Shown here: positions 5,058 to 20,350 of the stretch, piece after piece
How the letters are laid out: each line of letters opens with the position of its first letter
Position numbering within the stretch: the stretch's first letter is position 1
Source: Rhodothermales bacterium
GTDB lineage: Bacteria > Bacteroidota > Rhodothermia > Rhodothermales > VXPQ01
Direction: 5' to 3'
NCBI GenBank assembly: GCA_040904565.1
Contig: JBBDTI010000023.1
Location: forward strand, 1-25,856
Length of the DNA stretch: 25,856 nt
The notes under the pieces: generated by a model
Database searches by the model: none
The model's input: the letters and a program-made list of their open reading frames with translations, nothing else
What the model was told of the DNA's origin: nothing
Made by a program: the position numbers and the translations under genes

Positions 5058-5582
5058 TTATCCTGGCAGGGAATCGGAAGCGACAACGACGAGCGGCCGG
5101 AGCAGCTCGACCGTTTTCTCGCCGATACCCCTGACCTGCCGCAGGTCGTCCACATCGAGAAACGGACCGAACTTGGCCCGAAAATCGAGTATGCGCGCGG
5201 CGGTCGTCGGACCTATTCGTGGAAGCGTCTCGAGCTCGGCTGCACCGGCCGCATTTATATCCACGCGGCCGTCGTGGTCGATCGTGGTACGGGAAGCGGG
5301 CGCCGCGCCGCTCACGGGGGCCGCACCGCCCACGGGGCCCGTACCCGGAACGCGGTCCACCCCGCGAACCGGAACCTCGCCAGGCAGTGAATCGAGTCGG
5401 GCGGATCGCTCGGAGAACAAACGGTCCAGCTCATCATAGGCACCGACAGGTACCGTCACGGACCGCTGCTGTAGATAGCGCACGCCCTGTCCGACGCTCA
5501 ACAGCACGGAGAGGACCAGCAAGGCAAGGGCTTCGTGCCTGGTGAGGCACAGCCGCTGCCGAAGGCGGTTTAACCACAGCAT
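5058..5582 (-). CDS. comEA: ComEA-family helix-hairpin-helix DNA-binding protein
   Basis: C-terminal part of ORF 5058..6482, whose upstream extension is the antisense shadow of recO. Likely ATG at 5582; N-terminal TM segment, then VDINAAGAAELETLPRIGP and GPF..VDDLRQVRGIG HhH motifs. Confidence 0.85.
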   Translation of the reverse strand: MLWLNRLRQRLCLTRHEALALLVLSVLLSVGQGVRYLQQRSVTVPVGAYDELDRLFSERSARLDSLPGEVPVRGVDRVPGTGPVGGAAPVSGAAPASRTTIDHDGRVDINAAGAAELETLPRIGPTTAARILDFRAKFGPFLDVDDLRQVRGIGEKTVELLRPLVVVASDSLPG

Positions 5583-5639
5583 TTTCTTCCATAGACACGG
5601 ACCAGCGCGCGTCATAACCTCGCCGCGCCCGAAAAGACC

Positions 5640-6395
5640 ATGATCGTTCGCACGGAGGCCATCGTGCTCAGGAGCATCGACTACGGGGAGACGAGCGAGA
5701 TCGTCACGGTCTTCACGCGGGATATGGGAAAACTCACCGTAATGGCTAAAGGAGCGCGACGGCCCAAGAGCCGCTTCGGCTCCACCCTTCAGCCGATGTC
5801 CTATACGGAGGTCGTGTTCTATTACAAGGAGACGCGAGGCATCCAGACGTTGACCGAGAGCAGCCACGTGCGCGCCTTTCACGGCATCTCGAGAAGTCTG
5901 GAAGGGCTCTCCTACGGACTGCGCATCGTCGAGCTCGTTTATGCGCTCATGCAGGAGGAAGAGCGAAATCCGATCGTGTTCGACCTCGTGCTGGAAATCC
6001 TCGAGGAGCTCAATCGAACGGCGACGCGCCTCGAGAGCCTTTTCCATTTCTTCCAGCTGCGGCTCGCGACCGTGCTCGGCTTCGCGCCGCATATCGAGCG
6101 GGAAGATGTCGAGCGGATTCCGGAGAGCGGAGGCGTCATCGCACTCGAAGATGGATCGATCCTGCCGACTGAGCCGGGGGGCGCCATTACCGTCCGTCGC
6201 GGCTCTCGCAAAGCGCTGCGCGCCTTCGCGATCTTCGCCCGTGCCGACCTGGAAACCGTCATGCGTATGCGCGTCGACAAACGGACGCACATCGAATTGA
6301 GCCGCCTCATCGAGGATTTCATCCGCTACCACGTCGAAGACGCCTACCCGTCCCGATCCGCACGCATCATCGGCCAGATGCTCGACGACACCTGA
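5640..6395 (+). CDS. recO: DNA repair protein RecO
   Basis: 251 aa; MIVRTEAIVLRSIDYGETSEIVTVFTRDMGKLTVMAKGARRPKSRF OB-fold N-terminus; FQLRLATVLGFAP; no Cys4 zinc finger. Confidence 0.93.
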   Translation: MIVRTEAIVLRSIDYGETSEIVTVFTRDMGKLTVMAKGARRPKSRFGSTLQPMSYTEVVFYYKETRGIQTLTESSHVRAFHGISRSLEGLSYGLRIVELVYALMQEEERNPIVFDLVLEILEELNRTATRLESLFHFFQLRLATVLGFAPHIEREDVERIPESGGVIALEDGSILPTEPGGAITVRRGSRKALRAFAIFARADLETVMRMRVDKRTHIELSRLIEDFIRYHVEDAYPSRSARIIGQMLDDT

Positions 6396-6424
6396 CCACC
6401 GATCGCCGGCGGGCCGTACGACGA

Positions 6425-6451
6425 GCCGGGCGCCGCACCGCATCGCCCGGC
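6425..6451. terminator. GC-rich hairpin downstream of recO
   Basis: GCCGGGCG-N11-CGCCCGGC followed by a weak pyrimidine tract. Confidence 0.3.
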
Positions 6452-6493
6452 CCAGCTCTCTTCGATTTCCTACCGGATTCACCGCAAAGGCGC

Positions 6494-6522
6494 TTGATGT
6501 TATCTACCCGTGCGGGTATACT
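6494..6522 (+). promoter_or_regulatory. Sigma70-type promoter upstream of lexA, overlapped by an inverted repeat
   Basis: TTGATG (6494-6499)-17 bp-TATACT (6517-6522); TACCCG-TG-CGGGTA at 6505-6518. Confidence 0.7.
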
Positions 6523-6684
6523 GTGCATTCCATGTGTAGCGCGGATACCCGGCGCTGCAGCTTTTTGACCGATTGAGAAGCCCGGCATGCCCGGCCCCGT
6601 CCACGCGTCCCGTTCGCGTGTTGACCCGTACCGAACCCGCAGCGTGAACCGGATATACGCTCTGTGGACCGCCTGACCGTCGCC

Positions 6685-6710
6685 AGTTCAACGGAACTAA
6701 CCTTCGGTTA
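6685..6710. promoter_or_regulatory. Two adjoining palindromes just upstream of the lexA ATG (candidate operator)
   Basis: AGTTC-AACG-GAACT (6685-6698) and TAACC-TTC-GGTTA (6698-6710); ATG at 6714. Confidence 0.45.
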
Positions 6711-6713
6711 TTA

Positions 6714-7352
6714 ATGAGCCGAAAGAAACTCACGTCCAAGCAACATGCCTTCTTCAAGTACCTCTCGGAATTCGTCCGAGAGAACGGCGTCTGGCCCACC
6801 TATCGGGAGATCGTCGATCATTTCGGATATCGATCGCCCAACAGCGTCACGCAGAATCTGCAGGCCCTCCACAAGAAGAGTTATCTGACGAGGGACGACG
6901 ACGGCTACCACCTCGTCGACGAAGGCGACTCGCATGACGAGCAGGGCATTCCGGTCAAGGGGATCATCTCTGCCGGACAGCTCCAGGAGGCCGTTGAGGC
7001 CGACCTGGGGACCATTACGCTCGAGACGCTCTTTCCTAATCTCGACCGCATCTACGCCATCCGCGTGGCGGGCCAGTCCATGGTCGGCGCCGATATCGAG
7101 GACGGCGACTACGTCCTCTTGATCGACGATGACATTCCAAACGGCGGCATCGGCGCCATCCTGTTCAACGGCGAGACGTCGTTGAAGCGTATCTTCTACG
7201 ATCAGGAGGGGCTCCGACTCGAACCGGCAAATGACGAGTATTCCGACATCTATATCAAGCCCGATATTTTCGAGGAGGTACGCATCCTCGGGCGCTACGT
7301 GGGCCACGTAAACCACGACGGCATCTACAAGCGGGTTAACGGCCGGCGGTGA
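6714..7352 (+). CDS. lexA: LexA SOS repressor
   Basis: 212 aa; LTSKQ...PTYREIVDHFGYRSPNSV winged HTH; Ala-Gly cleavage site (ISAG); catalytic Ser (GQSM) and Lys (TSLKR). Confidence 0.92.
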   Translation: MSRKKLTSKQHAFFKYLSEFVRENGVWPTYREIVDHFGYRSPNSVTQNLQALHKKSYLTRDDDGYHLVDEGDSHDEQGIPVKGIISAGQLQEAVEADLGTITLETLFPNLDRIYAIRVAGQSMVGADIEDGDYVLLIDDDIPNGGIGAILFNGETSLKRIFYDQEGLRLEPANDEYSDIYIKPDIFEEVRILGRYVGHVNHDGIYKRVNGRR

Positions 7353-9355
7353 CGGATCGAGAGCGACTCGGCATCGACGTAGGCGGTACGTTTACGGATT
7401 TCGTCCACCTGAAAAACGGCGTCCTTTTCGCGCACAAGGTACCCACGACGCCGGACGATCAGAGTGCCGCCATCGGTTCCGGTATCCGACAGCTTCGGGC
7501 CGCCGAGCAGGCCGCGATCGCACACGGCACGACGACGGCGACGAACGCGCTGCTGGAACGACGGGGAGCACGCTGCGCGCTCGTCACCACGAAAGGATTT
7601 CGCGACGTGCTCGCCATCGGCCGCCAGAACCGGCCGCACCTCTACGACCTGTCGCAGCACCGGCCGGCACCTCTCGTTCCGGACGCCCTCCGCTTCGAAG
7701 TCGACGAGCGAATAGCTGCCGACGGCTCTATCGTCCGGCCCCTCGACGAGGACGAGGTCGCCTCCGTCGCCGCGGCGCTCCGTGGCCTCGAGGTGGAAAG
7801 TGTAGCGGTGGTGTTCCTTTTTTCGTTCCGCCACCCGGAGCACGAACGGCGCGCGGCCGAAATACTTGCCGCCCATCTGCCGCACGTCGACGTGTGCGTG
7901 AGCTCGGAGGTGCTGCCGGAATACCGGGAGTTTGAGCGTACGGCCACGACGGTCGTCAACGCCTACGTCCAGCCCGTAATCGGTCGGTACGTGGAACGAC
8001 TGACCGACGTCGTCGCGCCCCGAAGCATCCGCATCATGCAGTCCAACGGCGGGACGATCGGCCCCGTGCAGGCAGCCGTCCAGCCGGCCCGGCTGATGTT
8101 GAGCGGTCCGGCAGGCGGCGTCGTGGGTGCCTTCAACCTGTGCCGAACGACGCTCGGCGATCCCGCACCGCGGCTCCTCACGCTCGATATGGGTGGAACG
8201 AGTACCGACGTCGCCCTCTGTCCGGGGCGCATACCCCGAACGTCCGAAAGCGAGATAGCCGGCCTTCCGCTGCGCCTTCCGTCGATCGACATCCACACCG
8301 TCGGCGCGGGCGGTGGAAGCATCGCCCGGGTCGACGACGCGGGCGCGCTGCACGTCGGCCCGACCAGCGCGGGCGCCGTCCCGGGTCCGGCCTGTTACGG
8401 ACGCGGTGGTACCGAGCCGACGGTGACGGATGCCAACCTGGTCGTCGGACGCCTCCTTTTCGATCGTTTCCTCGGCGGCGACGTCGAACTCGACGTCGAT
8501 GCGGCGCGCGCGGCCGTCGATTCGCGAGCGCGCGGCCTGGGCCTGTCGTGCACCGAGACGGCGCTAGGCATCATCCGCATCGCCAACGCGGCCATGGAAC
8601 GGGCACTGCGACGCGTCTCGATCGAACGGGGGCACGATCCGAAACAGTACACCCTGGTACCCTTCGGCGGGGCCGGACCGCTGCACGCATGCGAGCTGGC
8701 CGACGCCCTGGGCATCGGCCGCATCGTCCTGCCCACGCATCCGGGCGTGCTGAGCGCGCTCGGTCTCCTCATGGCCGACGTGGTCTACGATGCCTCCATT
8801 TCCATCCTGAATCGTGGAGATGAGACGGCGGCGCTCTACCGCCGTCAGAGAGAGCACGTCCTCGAGGTGATGGCGAGGGAGGGTTTCGAGGCTCCCGCCG
8901 TCGAGACGTTCGTCGACATGCGCTACCGGGGACAGAGCTACGAACTTACGGTACCCGTCGATCTTCCGAACGAATCGCCGGACGCGGCGGCGGCGCGTTT
9001 CCACGAGGCGCATCGGAGGCGGTATGGCCACGCCCGACCTGACGCCGCCGTGGAACCGGTCACCGTCCGGGTCCGCGCTACCGCAGCCGGCGCGGAGGTC
9101 GCCCTGCCGCGAGAAGAGGAGGCGGCCGCATCCGACGCGGCACCGTTCGACCGGCGAACGCTCGTCCAGTCGGACGGCCACGAGGTTGCTGCACCCATCT
9201 ACGAGCGGGATGCGCTGCGTTACGGCCACACCGTAGACGGTCCGGCCGTCATCGCGCAGTACGACGCGACGATCTACGTCGCCGGCGGCTGGCGCGCATC
9301 CGTCGACCCCTGGCGTACCCTCCATCTCACCACCGCCCATCTCAACACCGCATAG
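7349..9355 (+). CDS. Hydantoinase/oxoprolinase A subunit (HyuA/OplA-like, ATP-binding)
   Basis: 668 aa; GIDVGGTFTD, HGTTTATNALLER, EYREFERTATT, DMGGTSTDV, GAGGGSIA, PGPACYG; GTGA overlap with the lexA stop. Confidence 0.93.
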   Translation: MTDRERLGIDVGGTFTDFVHLKNGVLFAHKVPTTPDDQSAAIGSGIRQLRAAEQAAIAHGTTTATNALLERRGARCALVTTKGFRDVLAIGRQNRPHLYDLSQHRPAPLVPDALRFEVDERIAADGSIVRPLDEDEVASVAAALRGLEVESVAVVFLFSFRHPEHERRAAEILAAHLPHVDVCVSSEVLPEYREFERTATTVVNAYVQPVIGRYVERLTDVVAPRSIRIMQSNGGTIGPVQAAVQPARLMLSGPAGGVVGAFNLCRTTLGDPAPRLLTLDMGGTSTDVALCPGRIPRTSESEIAGLPLRLPSIDIHTVGAGGGSIARVDDAGALHVGPTSAGAVPGPACYGRGGTEPTVTDANLVVGRLLFDRFLGGDVELDVDAARAAVDSRARGLGLSCTETALGIIRIANAAMERALRRVSIERGHDPKQYTLVPFGGAGPLHACELADALGIGRIVLPTHPGVLSALGLLMADVVYDASISILNRGDETAALYRRQREHVLEVMAREGFEAPAVETFVDMRYRGQSYELTVPVDLPNESPDAAAARFHEAHRRRYGHARPDAAVEPVTVRVRATAAGAEVALPREEEAAASDAAPFDRRTLVQSDGHEVAAPIYERDALRYGHTVDGPAVIAQYDATIYVAGGWRASVDPWRTLHLTTAHLNTA

Positions 9356-9361
9356 CCCGCC

Positions 9362-10942
9362 ATGGATCCGATCCTCCTCGAACTCTACCGGCACCGCTTC
9401 GCCGGCATCGCCGAAGAAATGGGCGTAACGCTGCAGCGGACCGCCTACTCGCCCAACATCAAGGAACGGCTCGATTTCTCCTGCGCCGTGTTCGACGCGG
9501 ACGGCCGGATGATCGCCCAGGCCGCCCACATTCCCGTCCACCTCGGCGCCATGCCTCGCAGCGTGGAGGCGGCCCTTTCGGCCGTCGACGCGTGGGAACC
9601 CGGCGACGTCGCCGTGCTGAACGATCCGTACGCCGGCGGCACGCACCTTCCCGACATCACGATGATCTCGCCCGTCTTCGTGGGGGACGAGCTCCACTTC
9701 TTCGCCGCGAGCCGCGCGCACCACGCCGACGTGGGTGGCATGACGCCCGGCTCACTGCCGCTATCCGATGAAATCTATCAGGAAGGCCTGATCCTCCCAC
9801 CGGTCAAGCTCTGCCGGGGGGGCCGCGTCAACGACGACCTGCTGCAGGTCATTCTTCGCAACGTGCGGACGCCCGAAGAGCGCCGCGGCGACCTCGCCGC
9901 CCAACAATCCGCCCACGCCGTCGCCGCCGACCGGCTCACCGAGCTCGTCGATCGGCACGGCCGGGAGGAAGTCTCGGACTATGCAGGACATCTCCTGTCC
10001 TACAGCGAACGACTGCTGCGCGAGCGCATTCGGACGTGGCCCGACGGCGTCTACACATTCAGCGACACGCTGGAGCTGGATGACGAGGCGGCACGCATCA
10101 CCGTGCAGGCCCGCGTGTCGGGCGACGGCGTCGCGTTCGATTTCGACGGCACCTCGCCCGCGGTCTCCGGCTCGCTCAACGCCGTGATGGCCATTACCGA
10201 GAGCGCCTGTTATTATACGGTACGGTGTTTGGCGGCGGCGGACGTCCCGGTGAACGACGGGTGCTTCCGCCCCATTGACGTCGCCGCGCCGGCCGGCTGC
10301 CTGGTGAATGCACGCGCTCCGAGCGCCGTCGCGGGCGGCAATGTCGAAACGTCCCAGCGGATCGTCGATGCGGTCCTCGGTGCGCTGGCGCAGGCCCTCC
10401 CCGGCAGCGTGCCCGCCGCGTCCCAGGGCACCATGAACAACCTTACCATCGGAGGCGCACGCCGTGACGGCCGTCCCTACGCCTATTACGAGACCATCGG
10501 CGGCGGGATGGGAGGTTCGCCCGACGCAGCCGGACTCAGCGGCGTGCACGTCCACATGACCAACACGCTGAACACCCCCGTGGAAGCGCTGGAGCTCGCA
10601 TTCCCTTTTCGGGTGGATGCCTACGCGCTGCGGCGAGGAAGCGGCGGAGACGGCATCCATCCCGGCGGCGACGGGCTCGTCCGCCGCTACCGGCTGCTCG
10701 AACCCGCGACCGTGACGCTGCTCAGCGAACGCCGCGAGCACGGGCCGTGGGGACTCGCCGGAGGTTCACCGGGCCGCCCCGGCCGTAACGTGCTCCTGCG
10801 TGACGGCGTCGAGGAACGGCTGCCTTCCAAATTCAGCCGCCGGCTGGATGCCGGCGACGTACTGATCGTCGAAACGCCGGGCGGCGGAGGCTGGGGCGCC
10901 CCCGGCGGGCCGGAACGCCCTGACGATCCACAAGAATCTTGA
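9362..10942 (+). CDS. Hydantoinase B/oxoprolinase B subunit (HyuB/OplB-like, metal-binding)
   Basis: 526 aa; SPNIKERLDFSCA, HIPVHLG, NDPYAGGTHLPD, HHADVGG, NTPVE, TPGGGGWG. Confidence 0.93.
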   Translation: MDPILLELYRHRFAGIAEEMGVTLQRTAYSPNIKERLDFSCAVFDADGRMIAQAAHIPVHLGAMPRSVEAALSAVDAWEPGDVAVLNDPYAGGTHLPDITMISPVFVGDELHFFAASRAHHADVGGMTPGSLPLSDEIYQEGLILPPVKLCRGGRVNDDLLQVILRNVRTPEERRGDLAAQQSAHAVAADRLTELVDRHGREEVSDYAGHLLSYSERLLRERIRTWPDGVYTFSDTLELDDEAARITVQARVSGDGVAFDFDGTSPAVSGSLNAVMAITESACYYTVRCLAAADVPVNDGCFRPIDVAAPAGCLVNARAPSAVAGGNVETSQRIVDAVLGALAQALPGSVPAASQGTMNNLTIGGARRDGRPYAYYETIGGGMGGSPDAAGLSGVHVHMTNTLNTPVEALELAFPFRVDAYALRRGSGGDGIHPGGDGLVRRYRLLEPATVTLLSERREHGPWGLAGGSPGRPGRNVLLRDGVEERLPSKFSRRLDAGDVLIVETPGGGGWGAPGGPERPDDPQES

Positions 10943-10954
10943 TGGAGACATATC

Positions 10955-11293
10955 ATGGCCTACAGTGAACGGCTTGCGGAGCGCATGCGCCGCATCCTGG
11001 CCGAGCGGTCGGAGACGATGAAGACGACGGAGAAGAAGATGTTCGGCGGACTCGCTTTCATGGTAGACGGAAACATGTGCTGCGGTGTGCTCGGCGACGA
11101 GCTGATGGCCCGCGTCGGACCGGAAACCTACGAGGACGCCCTCCGGCTGCCGCATGCCCGGGAGATGGATTTCACCGGCCGACCGCTCACCGGATACGTC
11201 TACGTATCGGCCGAGGGCGTCGCCTCCGCATCGGGTCTCGCCGACTGGGTGAGCCGGGCGCTGGCCTTCGTCGACACGCTGCCGGCAAAATAG
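10955..11293 (+). CDS. TfoX/Sxy N-terminal-domain protein
   Basis: 112 aa; EKKMFGGLAFMVDGNM, MDFTGRP; GGAG Shine-Dalgarno sequence; starts 12 nt after the B-subunit stop. Confidence 0.85.
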   Translation: MAYSERLAERMRRILAERSETMKTTEKKMFGGLAFMVDGNMCCGVLGDELMARVGPETYEDALRLPHAREMDFTGRPLTGYVYVSAEGVASASGLADWVSRALAFVDTLPAK

Positions 11294-11412
11294 GGCTGCG
11301 GGCGATGGTACCCGTCCACTCGCACCCGTCCGCTTGGCGCAGCCGTATTAACTTAGGACGACTACCAGATTAGAAGGGTATCCCCGGCACTTAGCATGCT
11401 ACTACAGATCCC

Positions 11413-12279
11413 ATGACCGTCCGAAAAACCTCCTATATCCTCCTGACGGCCTGCCTGTCGATTGCGTTCCGCGCCGTTTTCGCGCAGCCGTCCCACGCCC
11501 AGGACGTCCTCCACCGCGCCCACGCACACAACGATTACGAACACGACCGGCCGCTGCTCGACGCGCTCGACCGCGGATTCGGCAGCATCGAGGTAGACGT
11601 ATTTCTGGTGGATGGAGCGCTCCTCGTGGCTCACGACCTCGAAGACGTGCGGGCTGACCGAACACTCCGGTCGCTGTATCTCGATCCGCTGCGGGAACGC
11701 GTCCAGGCCCACGATGGATCGGTGTACGGTGAAGGCACGCCGGTCCTGCTGCTCGTCGACGTGAAATCCGAGGCGGAGCCGACGTATGAAGCGCTCCGCT
11801 CGGTTCTGCGCGAGTATGCCGGTATGCTGACCCGGTTCGAACGCAGCAGCGCGGCCGGGAGCGGCGAGACGGCTGACGGCGGTAGAGCGACGGAAGAGAC
11901 GATCGAAGGAGCCGTCACCGTCGTCATATCAGGCAACCGGGCGCGCTCGATGATGCGGGCCGAGGACGTGCGCCTCGCCGCCTACGACGGCCGGATGGAG
12001 GACCTCGAACAGCACGCCGACGTGCCGCCCTCTTTCATACCGCTCGTCAGCATCCCCTGGTACGGCATCTCCAGCTGGCGCGGCGAGGGCGCCATCCCCG
12101 ACGCCGATCTGGATCAGCTGCGTAGGCTCGTCGCGGCGGCTCACGAGCAGGGCCGGATGATTCGCTTCTGGGCTACGGCCGATACGTCCACCGTTTGGGA
12201 CGTGCTGACGGAGGAGAACGTAGACCTGATCGGCGCGGACGACCTCGAGGCGCTCGGCACCTACCTCCGATCGCGCTGA
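11413..12279 (+). CDS. Secreted PI-PLC/glycerophosphodiester phosphodiesterase-like protein
   Basis: 288 aa; signal peptide (..SHAQ), AHAHNDY, GFGSIEVDV, LLVDVK, RFWAT, VDLIGADDL. Confidence 0.8.
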   Translation: MTVRKTSYILLTACLSIAFRAVFAQPSHAQDVLHRAHAHNDYEHDRPLLDALDRGFGSIEVDVFLVDGALLVAHDLEDVRADRTLRSLYLDPLRERVQAHDGSVYGEGTPVLLLVDVKSEAEPTYEALRSVLREYAGMLTRFERSSAAGSGETADGGRATEETIEGAVTVVISGNRARSMMRAEDVRLAAYDGRMEDLEQHADVPPSFIPLVSIPWYGISSWRGEGAIPDADLDQLRRLVAAAHEQGRMIRFWATADTSTVWDVLTEENVDLIGADDLEALGTYLRSR

Positions 12280-14878: not shown

Positions 14879-17596
<2,718 letters not shown>

Positions 17597-20277: not shown

Positions 20278-20350
20278 GGGGCTATAGCTCAGTTGGTAGA
20301 GCGCTGCAATCGCACTGCAGAGGTCAGGAGTTCGAATCTCCTTAGCTCCA
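20278..20350 (+). tRNA. tRNA-Ala(CGC)
   Basis: 73 nt; acceptor GGGGCTA/TAGCTCC with G3:U70; D-arm GCTC/GAGC; anticodon stem CTGCA/TGCAG with loop ATCGCAC; T-arm AGGAG-TTCGAAT-CTCCT; discriminator A; CCA not encoded. Confidence 0.97.

Follow-up and report, generated by a model that had tools for sequence, protein, structure and literature searches.

The 25,856-nucleotide (nt) stretch of DNA analyzed here, referred to as the window, belongs to a salt-loving Rhodothermales bacterium and carries a lexA gene that runs directly into hyuA and hyuB, which encode the two subunits of a predicted ATP-dependent cyclic-amide hydrolase. Together with a short tfoX_N gene, these very likely form one transcription unit in this genome, and the hydrolase HyuAB is probably co-regulated with lexA and inducible by DNA damage. 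Judged from related genomes, the linkage itself goes back to an old block of genes, and it is not an obligatory one. The genome assembly (4.02 Mb, 95 contigs) was compared with a near sample of 40 relatives, 18 from the same family and 22 from other families of the order, and with a class-wide sample of 120 additional genomes spread evenly over the class Rhodothermia. Protein families were assigned by Pfam and NCBIfam profile cut-offs. Promoters and terminators were predicted by a consensus scan, which spanned positions 6300–11600 in the case of terminators. The features of the locus are the following:

5640–6395, plus strand: recO, with the Pfam domains RecO_N and RecO_C and a match to NCBIfam TIGR00613 (136.7 bits; cut-off 48.7).
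6494–6522, plus strand: sigma-70-like promoter, TTGATG-17 nt-TATACT, predicted by the consensus scan.
6520–6538, plus strand: operator-like box ACTGTGCATTCCATGTGTA, a direct repeat of period 11 (TGTRY-N6-TGTRY) that overlaps the −10 element and the expected transcript start.
6539–6713, plus strand: long 5' leader of lexA.
6714–7352, plus strand: lexA, encoding LexA1 (212 amino acids), with the Pfam domains LexA_DNA_bind and Peptidase_S24.
7349–9355, plus strand: hyuA, encoding the ATP-binding (ASKHA) subunit (668 amino acids), with the Pfam domains Hydant_A_N, Hydantoinase_A and Hydant_A_C.
9362–10942, plus strand: hyuB, encoding the metal-binding hydrolytic subunit (526 amino acids), Pfam Hydantoinase_B at 710 bits.
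10955–11293, plus strand: gene for a protein of 112 amino acids that has a TfoX_N domain only (PF04993, 68.8 bits).

The first-pass annotation of the window had described this gene order with a GTGA overlap, gaps of 6 and 12 nt, a single promoter and no terminator at the junctions, and the Pfam domains, the sequence and the consensus scan bear out each of these points. The lexA stop and the hyuA start share the GTGA at 7349–7352 (−4 nt), and the GTG start of hyuA is backed by homology, as HyuA of Salinibacter, where the junction is an ATGA overlap, has identical first residues. The gap between hyuA and hyuB measures 6 nt and that between hyuB and tfoX_N 12 nt. No terminator-like site was found at any junction of the four-gene unit; the only one in the scanned span is a weak 5-bp stem within hyuB (10122–10134). 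Two weaker promoter-like matches were detected, at 10188 and 10927, and none inside lexA. From the tight junctions, the lack of a terminator at any of them and the lack of a promoter within lexA, we infer that the downstream genes are co-transcribed with lexA. Because the lexA promoter lies downstream of recO, the latter is, as far as can be told, outside this transcript. Three features went unmentioned in the first-pass annotation: recO upstream of the unit, the 19-bp box on the −10 element, and a second lexA gene elsewhere in the genome that heads an imuB/dnaE2 cassette with the same box architecture.

A comparison of the DNA upstream of lexA orthologues reveals a conserved −35/−10 promoter and a conserved element over the −10 and the start site. 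Of 36 non-duplicate regions upstream of lexA, 26 match the strict box pattern, and 23 of these also have a TTGA-type −35 element at a spacing of 16–18 nt. In four Salinibacter species (loci L026, L028, L030 and L032) the box is inverted, with at most 4 of 200 shuffled sequences reaching the observed score; an inverted box fits a protein-binding site rather than an RNA or promoter element. A matrix of 19 positions was built from 22 distinct orthologous lexA boxes, and the lexA1 box is the only site in the 4.02-Mb genome that scores 31.9 (runner-up 19.2). The promoter of the second lexA, lexA2, contains GTGY-N4-YATGTGY in its −35/−10 spacer, the same architecture as the lexA1 box, and this element is kept at the lexA2 orthologues of three relatives (G001, G004 and G006). 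The pattern matches eight sites genome-wide, five of them intergenic, and two of these five are the lexA1 and lexA2 promoters. The box is, on this evidence, most likely a LexA operator, bound by LexA itself in an autoregulatory circuit. The promoters of lexA in family f26, which are AT-rich and GAACATATA-like, have diverged too far for a box to be defined and compared with hyuA upstream regions.

The distance from the box to the lexA start codon is 197 nt in this genome, versus 48–131 nt in the relatives. A reading of this leader as a riboswitch or attenuator found no match among Rfam families, and its predicted fold is not unusual (z = −1.31). Just past the box (6538–6570), the leader contains a G+C-rich hairpin, GCGCGG-ATAC-CCGGCGC, with TTTTT a few bases on; the hairpin is not conserved in the leader of the closest relative, and the scan made no terminator call there.

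Both domains of LexA1 score above their Pfam cut-offs (PF01726, 50.8 bits; PF00717, 62.2 bits). Full-length alignment with HMMER to solved LexA proteins (3k2z and E. coli LexA) matches the segments ISAGQ, GQSM and LKRI to their counterparts, and places the Ala-Gly cleavage site and the Ser/Lys catalytic dyad at the positions that we take to be A84-G85, S119 and K156 in E. coli LexA. Orthologues of LexA1 were found in 113 of 121 genomes of the class (the window's own genome counted), at 57–93% identity, and in 12 Salinibacter genomes no LexA other than LexA1 was found. LexA2, which is 34% identical to LexA1, is encoded at 14946–15668 of contig C67 next to dnaA. Behind it follow genes for a Y-family protein of IMS-like type and for a DnaE2-like polymerase (C67; locus L043, 2947–8000). 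Members of family f4 (G021, G049 and G060) have two tandem LexA1-like genes, 53–58% identical to the LexA of the window and, in G021, about 57 nt apart.

These features suggest the following mode of regulation. A single mRNA comprising lexA, hyuA and hyuB, and in this genome alone also tfoX_N, would be transcribed from the lexA promoter, with LexA occupying the operator across the −10 element and start site and thereby controlling its own synthesis. HyuAB would be produced at the basal level of LexA and derepressed upon RecA-stimulated self-cleavage of the repressor. HyuA would then phosphorylate the amide tautomer with ATP, and HyuB would open the ring at its metal site. The arrangement would not have been assembled for a damage-related purpose and would derive from an ancient block of Rhodothermales genes. 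Binding of LexA to the box, induction by damage and the substrate are the inferred parts of this scheme, next to co-transcription.

The upstream regions of recA were also compared (relatives' loci L059–L081). In most Rhodothermales other than Salinibacter, a −10-like hexamer is preceded at a distance of about 17 nt by the conserved direct repeat TGACAC-N5-TGACAC. Salinibacter species instead carry ATATGT-N7-ACATAT, an AT-rich palindrome. The recA gene of the window's own genome has neither. A single consensus for the lexA and recA sites could not be derived, and no recA operator is claimed.

The first-pass annotation had assigned the A/B pair to the ATP-dependent cyclic-amide hydrolases, and the Pfam domains, ATP motifs and metal tetrad agree with this assignment. 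HyuA contains DVGGTFTD (position 10), DMGGT (280) and GAVPGP (342), which correspond to the subunit A motifs DxGGTxTD, DxGGT and GxxPGP given for the family in the portion of the caprolactamase study consulted (PMC8453981). In HyuB, D38, H95, D98 and H120 are spaced like the metal tetrad of CapB, which that portion lists as Asp41, His99, Asp102 and His124 (PMC8453981); the correspondence is judged by sequence spacing. By these sequence features HyuAB is an intact ATP-dependent hydrolase of cyclic amides (lactams or hydantoins). Its organization resembles that of CapAB from Pseudomonas jessenii (PDB 6YRA), which, as far as the consulted text describes it, has two subunits, phosphate-1, phosphate-2 and adenosine motifs in subunit A, with counterparts in HyuA, and an Asp-His-Asp-His set in subunit B (PMC8453981). 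The matches to 6YRA have E values of 1e-121 for HyuA (6yra_A) and 3.9e-56 for HyuB. An orthologue of caprolactamase was nevertheless rejected: the scores against NF050156 and NF050157 (CapA and CapB) are 512.7 and 239.5, with cut-offs of 1000. The best solved match is a fused protein of 1288 amino acids (PDB 7hk5; HyuA, E = 7.8e-138; HyuB, E = 8e-82), whose name, N-methylhydantoinase, is the depositor's label. This protein and the eukaryote-type 5-oxoprolinases have the same A-then-B order, from which HyuAB differs in being split into two genes. Open frames of about 1000–1105 amino acids surround the HyuA or HyuB matches in three f3 genomes (G020, G045 and G051) and in G031, and these may be hyuA-hyuB fusions or run-on frames.

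The genome has no Hydantoinase_B gene besides hyuB. The portion of PMC8453981 consulted presents PxpABC as the common prokaryotic 5-oxoprolinase; it would perform the same task as HyuAB if the latter is a 5-oxoprolinase, and belongs to an unrelated protein family. PxpA (PF03746) was not found in the window's own genome and was present in one of the 41 genomes searched (G030). As HyuAB is the only candidate 5-oxoprolinase of this genome, with a single hyuB and no PxpA detected, 5-oxoproline may be its most probable substrate, and we offer it as the most economical guess. Where hyuAB is not linked to lexA, its neighbors follow no consistent theme and include genes for an ABC transporter, an Nramp protein, an M28 peptidase, an isoamylase, an aminotransferase and a kinase.

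The conservation of the lexA–hyuAB linkage was assessed in the near sample, where 38 of the 40 relatives have a LexA1 orthologue with a usable locus, 28 have an orthologous hyuB (at least 54% identity) and 27 have both. Linkage was called when hyuA shares the strand of lexA and lies no more than 2.5 kb downstream of it. By this rule hyuA is linked to lexA in 22 of the 27 relatives that have both genes, and these belong to six families of the GTDB. Family f1 shows the linkage in all of its 17 genomes, with the two genes directly adjacent in 14 and separated by an insert of 0.7–1.3 kb in three; in four others (G025, G028, G033 and G039) the two genes are connected through a class I S-adenosylmethionine-dependent methyltransferase of about 207 amino acids, and in G024 hyuA is located 2.46 kb downstream of lexA with other open reading frames between. 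The only hyuB match of G024 is on another contig without hyuA (L109, L048), which may reflect a split pair or a mis-assembled metagenome-assembled genome. The class-wide sample adds one linked genome (G120, family f22). In Salinibacter, the lexA stop runs directly into the hyuA start in eight of 12 species, the ATGA overlap having been read base by base in L056, and the LexA proteins of the two genera sharing the 4-nt overlap are 72–78% identical. The other four species have an insert of 64–268 nt at the junction (L091, L092, L094 and L096). These inserts hold a AATCAGAGTATCC-like motif that recurs upstream of lexA in several Salinibacter loci, and they look like small dispersed repeats similar to repetitive extragenic palindromes or miniature inverted-repeat transposable elements.

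The wider neighborhood is conserved as well. The recO gene is located upstream of lexA on the same strand in the loci of 34 of the 38 relatives, and in families f2, f5, f22 and f25 the lexA locus reads recO-lexA-methyltransferase or recO-lexA-alpha-amylase. The methyltransferase encoded in many families behind lexA and on its strand (about 207 amino acids, Pfam Methyltransf_12, no NCBIfam equivalog) was seen in G019, G025, G028, G029, G031, G033, G037, G039, G040, G062, G064, G073, G082, G084, G086, G101 and G120, and the locus may most often take the form recO-lexA-methyltransferase. An alpha-amylase gene takes the post-lexA slot in G022, G023, G103, G106 and G128, a VOC/bleomycin-resistance-like protein is encoded there in G030, and a DinB-family protein in G026. 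The simplest history would start from an ancestral Rhodothermales block recO-lexA-(methyltransferase)-hyuA-hyuB...aconitase, with losses and relocations of parts that varied from lineage to lineage. On this history, the Salinibacteraceae would have lost the methyltransferase, and lexA and hyuA would thereby have come to overlap by 4 nt.

The first-pass annotation had extended the unit to tfoX_N; the part comprising lexA, hyuA and hyuB is supported by the linkage in the relatives and by the recurrence of the overlap in Salinibacter, whereas tfoX_N is part of the unit only in this genome. A TfoX_N domain is encoded in 10 of 41 genomes (own genome counted), in a single copy in the window's own genome. 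Four relatives (G003, G006, G028 and G033) encode TfoX_N as well as a lexA-linked hyuA, and in each of them tfoX_N is on a different contig from lexA, and the orthologues of G003, G006 and G023 (47–55% identity) have neither hyuB nor the next gene of the window nearby. In none of the relatives' loci examined was tfoX_N found after hyuB. Judged from these genomes, its place in the operon is an addition specific to this genome. The protein of 112 amino acids shares the N-terminal TfoX domain with TfoX/Sxy regulators and differs from them in that no TfoX_C domain was detected by Pfam; NCBIfam gave no hit either, and its position is not conserved. Since it has only the N-terminal domain, a reading of tfoX_N as a competence regulator was rejected.

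Past the unit, 120 nt downstream of tfoX_N, the plus strand encodes a protein of 288 amino acids (11413–12279) with a hydrophobic N-terminus and no Pfam or NCBIfam match. It is missing from this position in the relatives, and in G004 and G006 another gene takes its place. Positions 20278–20350 of the plus strand hold a tRNA gene (Rfam, 69.7 bits). On the other side of the unit, a minus-strand open reading frame of 474 amino acids (5058–6482), apparently divergent from lexA, was rejected as an over-extended frame antisense to the real recO. The ComEA-like (HHH_3) part of this frame is confined to the C-terminal portion near 5058–5600, and tblastn searches with the false N-terminal part matched relatives by reading conserved recO antisense. 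Long open reading frames in this G+C range are misleading, as this high-G+C artefact demonstrates.

Taken as a whole chain, from one mRNA through a LexA-bound operator and derepression upon damage to an intact HyuAB that likely acts on 5-oxoproline, the genes being inherited as a block, the proposal has the balance of probability slightly in its favor. Co-transcription and translational coupling of hyuAB with lexA, here and in Salinibacter, are on their own much more probable than the full chain. A number of results weigh against it. On the side of the operator, matrix hits in the genome do not exceed those in shuffled sequence (41, 12, 6 and 3 versus 88, 26, 11 and 4 at scores of 9, 12, 15 and 18), and neither GTGYA-N6-GTGYA (17 hits versus 22–26 in shuffles) nor GTGY-N4-YATGTGY (8 hits versus 5–12) is enriched overall. 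Genome-wide, the box model identifies no DNA-repair gene except the two lexA operons; the other intergenic matrix hits are next to genes for an M23 peptidase, a SIS protein, an MFS sugar transporter, a protein with a type IX secretion system tail, a C25 peptidase, an epimerase, a UPF0047 protein, an exopolysaccharide tyrosine-kinase-like protein and iPGM. The recA gene of this genome has no convincing box, only a loose resemblance with different spacing, and both results speak against a classical SOS regulon under LexA1. LexA1 also scores narrowly below the cut-off of NCBIfam TIGR00498 (102.3 versus 110.95 bits), its domains being complete, and LexA2 passes it with 116.2 bits. The single high-scoring box, the boxless recA, the TIGR00498 scores and the unusual conservation of LexA1 across the class would also suit a local self-cleaving repressor, chiefly of its own operon with hyuAB as the main cargo, while LexA2 governs the mutagenesis genes. 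We regard such a division of labor as distinctly improbable. The matrix was derived from orthologous promoters only, and so over-fits and would miss diverged sites; the promoter architecture shared with lexA2 implies cross-talk; and LexA1 is the sole LexA of Salinibacter, whose recA promoters bear a related AT-rich TGTAY/ACATAT element. On the side of the substrate, the argument by exclusion for a 5-oxoprolinase is weak, because, of the 11 genomes in the 41-genome sample that gave no hyuB match, ten lack PxpA too. As the exception, G030, has PxpA without hyuB, yet the other ten have neither, complementarity between PxpA and HyuB is uninformative. The first-pass annotation had suggested, alongside 5-oxoproline, excised hydantoin lesions as substrate, a role in which HyuAB would be a damage-induced enzyme that destroys hydantoin-type oxidized bases freed by base excision repair. 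The enzyme class does take cyclic amides including hydantoins, the closest solved relative is labelled an N-methylhydantoinase, and hyuAB is located beside two DNA-repair genes, recO and lexA. No result speaks for a lesion-base substrate beyond the enzyme class itself, however; free lesion bases would be scarce, so that a stoichiometric ATP-consuming enzyme would be hard to justify, and the lexA linkage is dispensable in many families. We consider this role highly improbable, and 5-oxoproline the more economical substrate.

The proposal is also weighed against descent without function, in which hyuAB is a housekeeping metabolic pair that, from an early ancestor of the Rhodothermales onward, has stood next to recO and lexA, and any read-through from the lexA promoter is incidental and without adaptive tie to DNA damage. 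The synteny suggested by the first-pass annotation as a check does hold in most near relatives, as described above, but it is broken in at least five families, f17, f25 and f26 among them. Four relatives with both genes (G026, G031, G032 and G040) are unlinked, a fifth (G037) being excluded from the call by the end of its contig. In the class-wide sample, where HyuA orthologues are present in 44 genomes, lexA and hyuA are apart except in families f1 and f22 (G039 and G120), and in nine complete genomes of f25 and f26 the two genes lie 0.28–2.75 Mb from each other. The entire neighborhood is syntenic, comprising a response regulator, recO, lexA, hyuAB and an M1 peptidase or aconitase, and linkage conservation of the same order is thus by itself no proof of a functional tie. 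In f26, recO-hyuAB-aconitase persists without lexA (aconitase beside hyuB in ten of ten loci; recO beside hyuA in seven of ten, of which four are co-directional and immediately upstream and three divergent), so that the position of hyuAB is independent of lexA; in f25, recO-lexA-methyltransferase is kept and hyuAB is gone. Unlinked hyuA genes have no box at a position weight matrix score of at least 8 (L047–L050), and matches to a relaxed pattern fall only within the hyuB coding sequence. The presence of unrelated genes such as alpha-amylase in the same post-lexA slot also argues for neutral synteny. With the linkage broken, the unlinked hyuA boxless and the slot shared, block inheritance explains the conservation as well as function does. 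We consider purely incidental read-through a serious but less probable alternative: the 4-nt overlap, which enforces co-expression, has been kept between two genera, there is no promoter-like match within lexA, and a neutral origin would still leave the enzyme regulated with lexA in this genome. The opposite extreme, that HyuAB is a selected member of the SOS response of the Salinibacteraceae which removes a cyclic amide arising under genotoxic stress (5-oxoproline, a hydantoin lesion or a genotoxic lactam) and is kept next to recO and lexA for this reason, appears improbable to us.

Autoregulated lexA operons with cargo genes are represented by the lexA2-imuA-imuB-dnaE2 cassette and by lexA-dinF of E. 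coli. As at the hyuAB locus, where the operator is putative, lexA is the first gene of a polycistronic unit behind an operator-bearing promoter, an order by which the genes that follow are induced along with it. The cargo of those cassettes consists of proteins of DNA transactions or efflux; here it would be an ATP-dependent hydrolase of small molecules. To our knowledge, lineage-specific SOS genes are nearly always genes of DNA transactions, cell division or mobile elements. Our literature search, in which some matches were set aside by title, found no link between lexA or the SOS regulon and a hydantoinase or oxoprolinase, and nothing on LexA in Salinibacter or Rhodothermales. The sections consulted of a study of LexA in Bacteroidetes mention neither these taxa nor these enzymes (PMC8565304).

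An intact lactam/hydantoin hydrolase coupled to lexA, and kept so in cultured Salinibacter, provides a testable case of a metabolic enzyme under damage control. The locus likewise offers a way into the study of SOS regulation in the Rhodothermia, with its candidate operator, its two LexA paralogues and the conserved recO-lexA-methyltransferase unit. If HyuAB were a selected SOS member, it would be the first example of an enzyme of small-molecule "metabolite repair" that is built into an SOS operon, beside an undescribed direct-repeat LexA operator, TGTRY-N6-TGTRY, for the class Rhodothermia. If the coupling is incidental, the locus would be a clean example of how gene loss within an old syntenic block creates a new operon.

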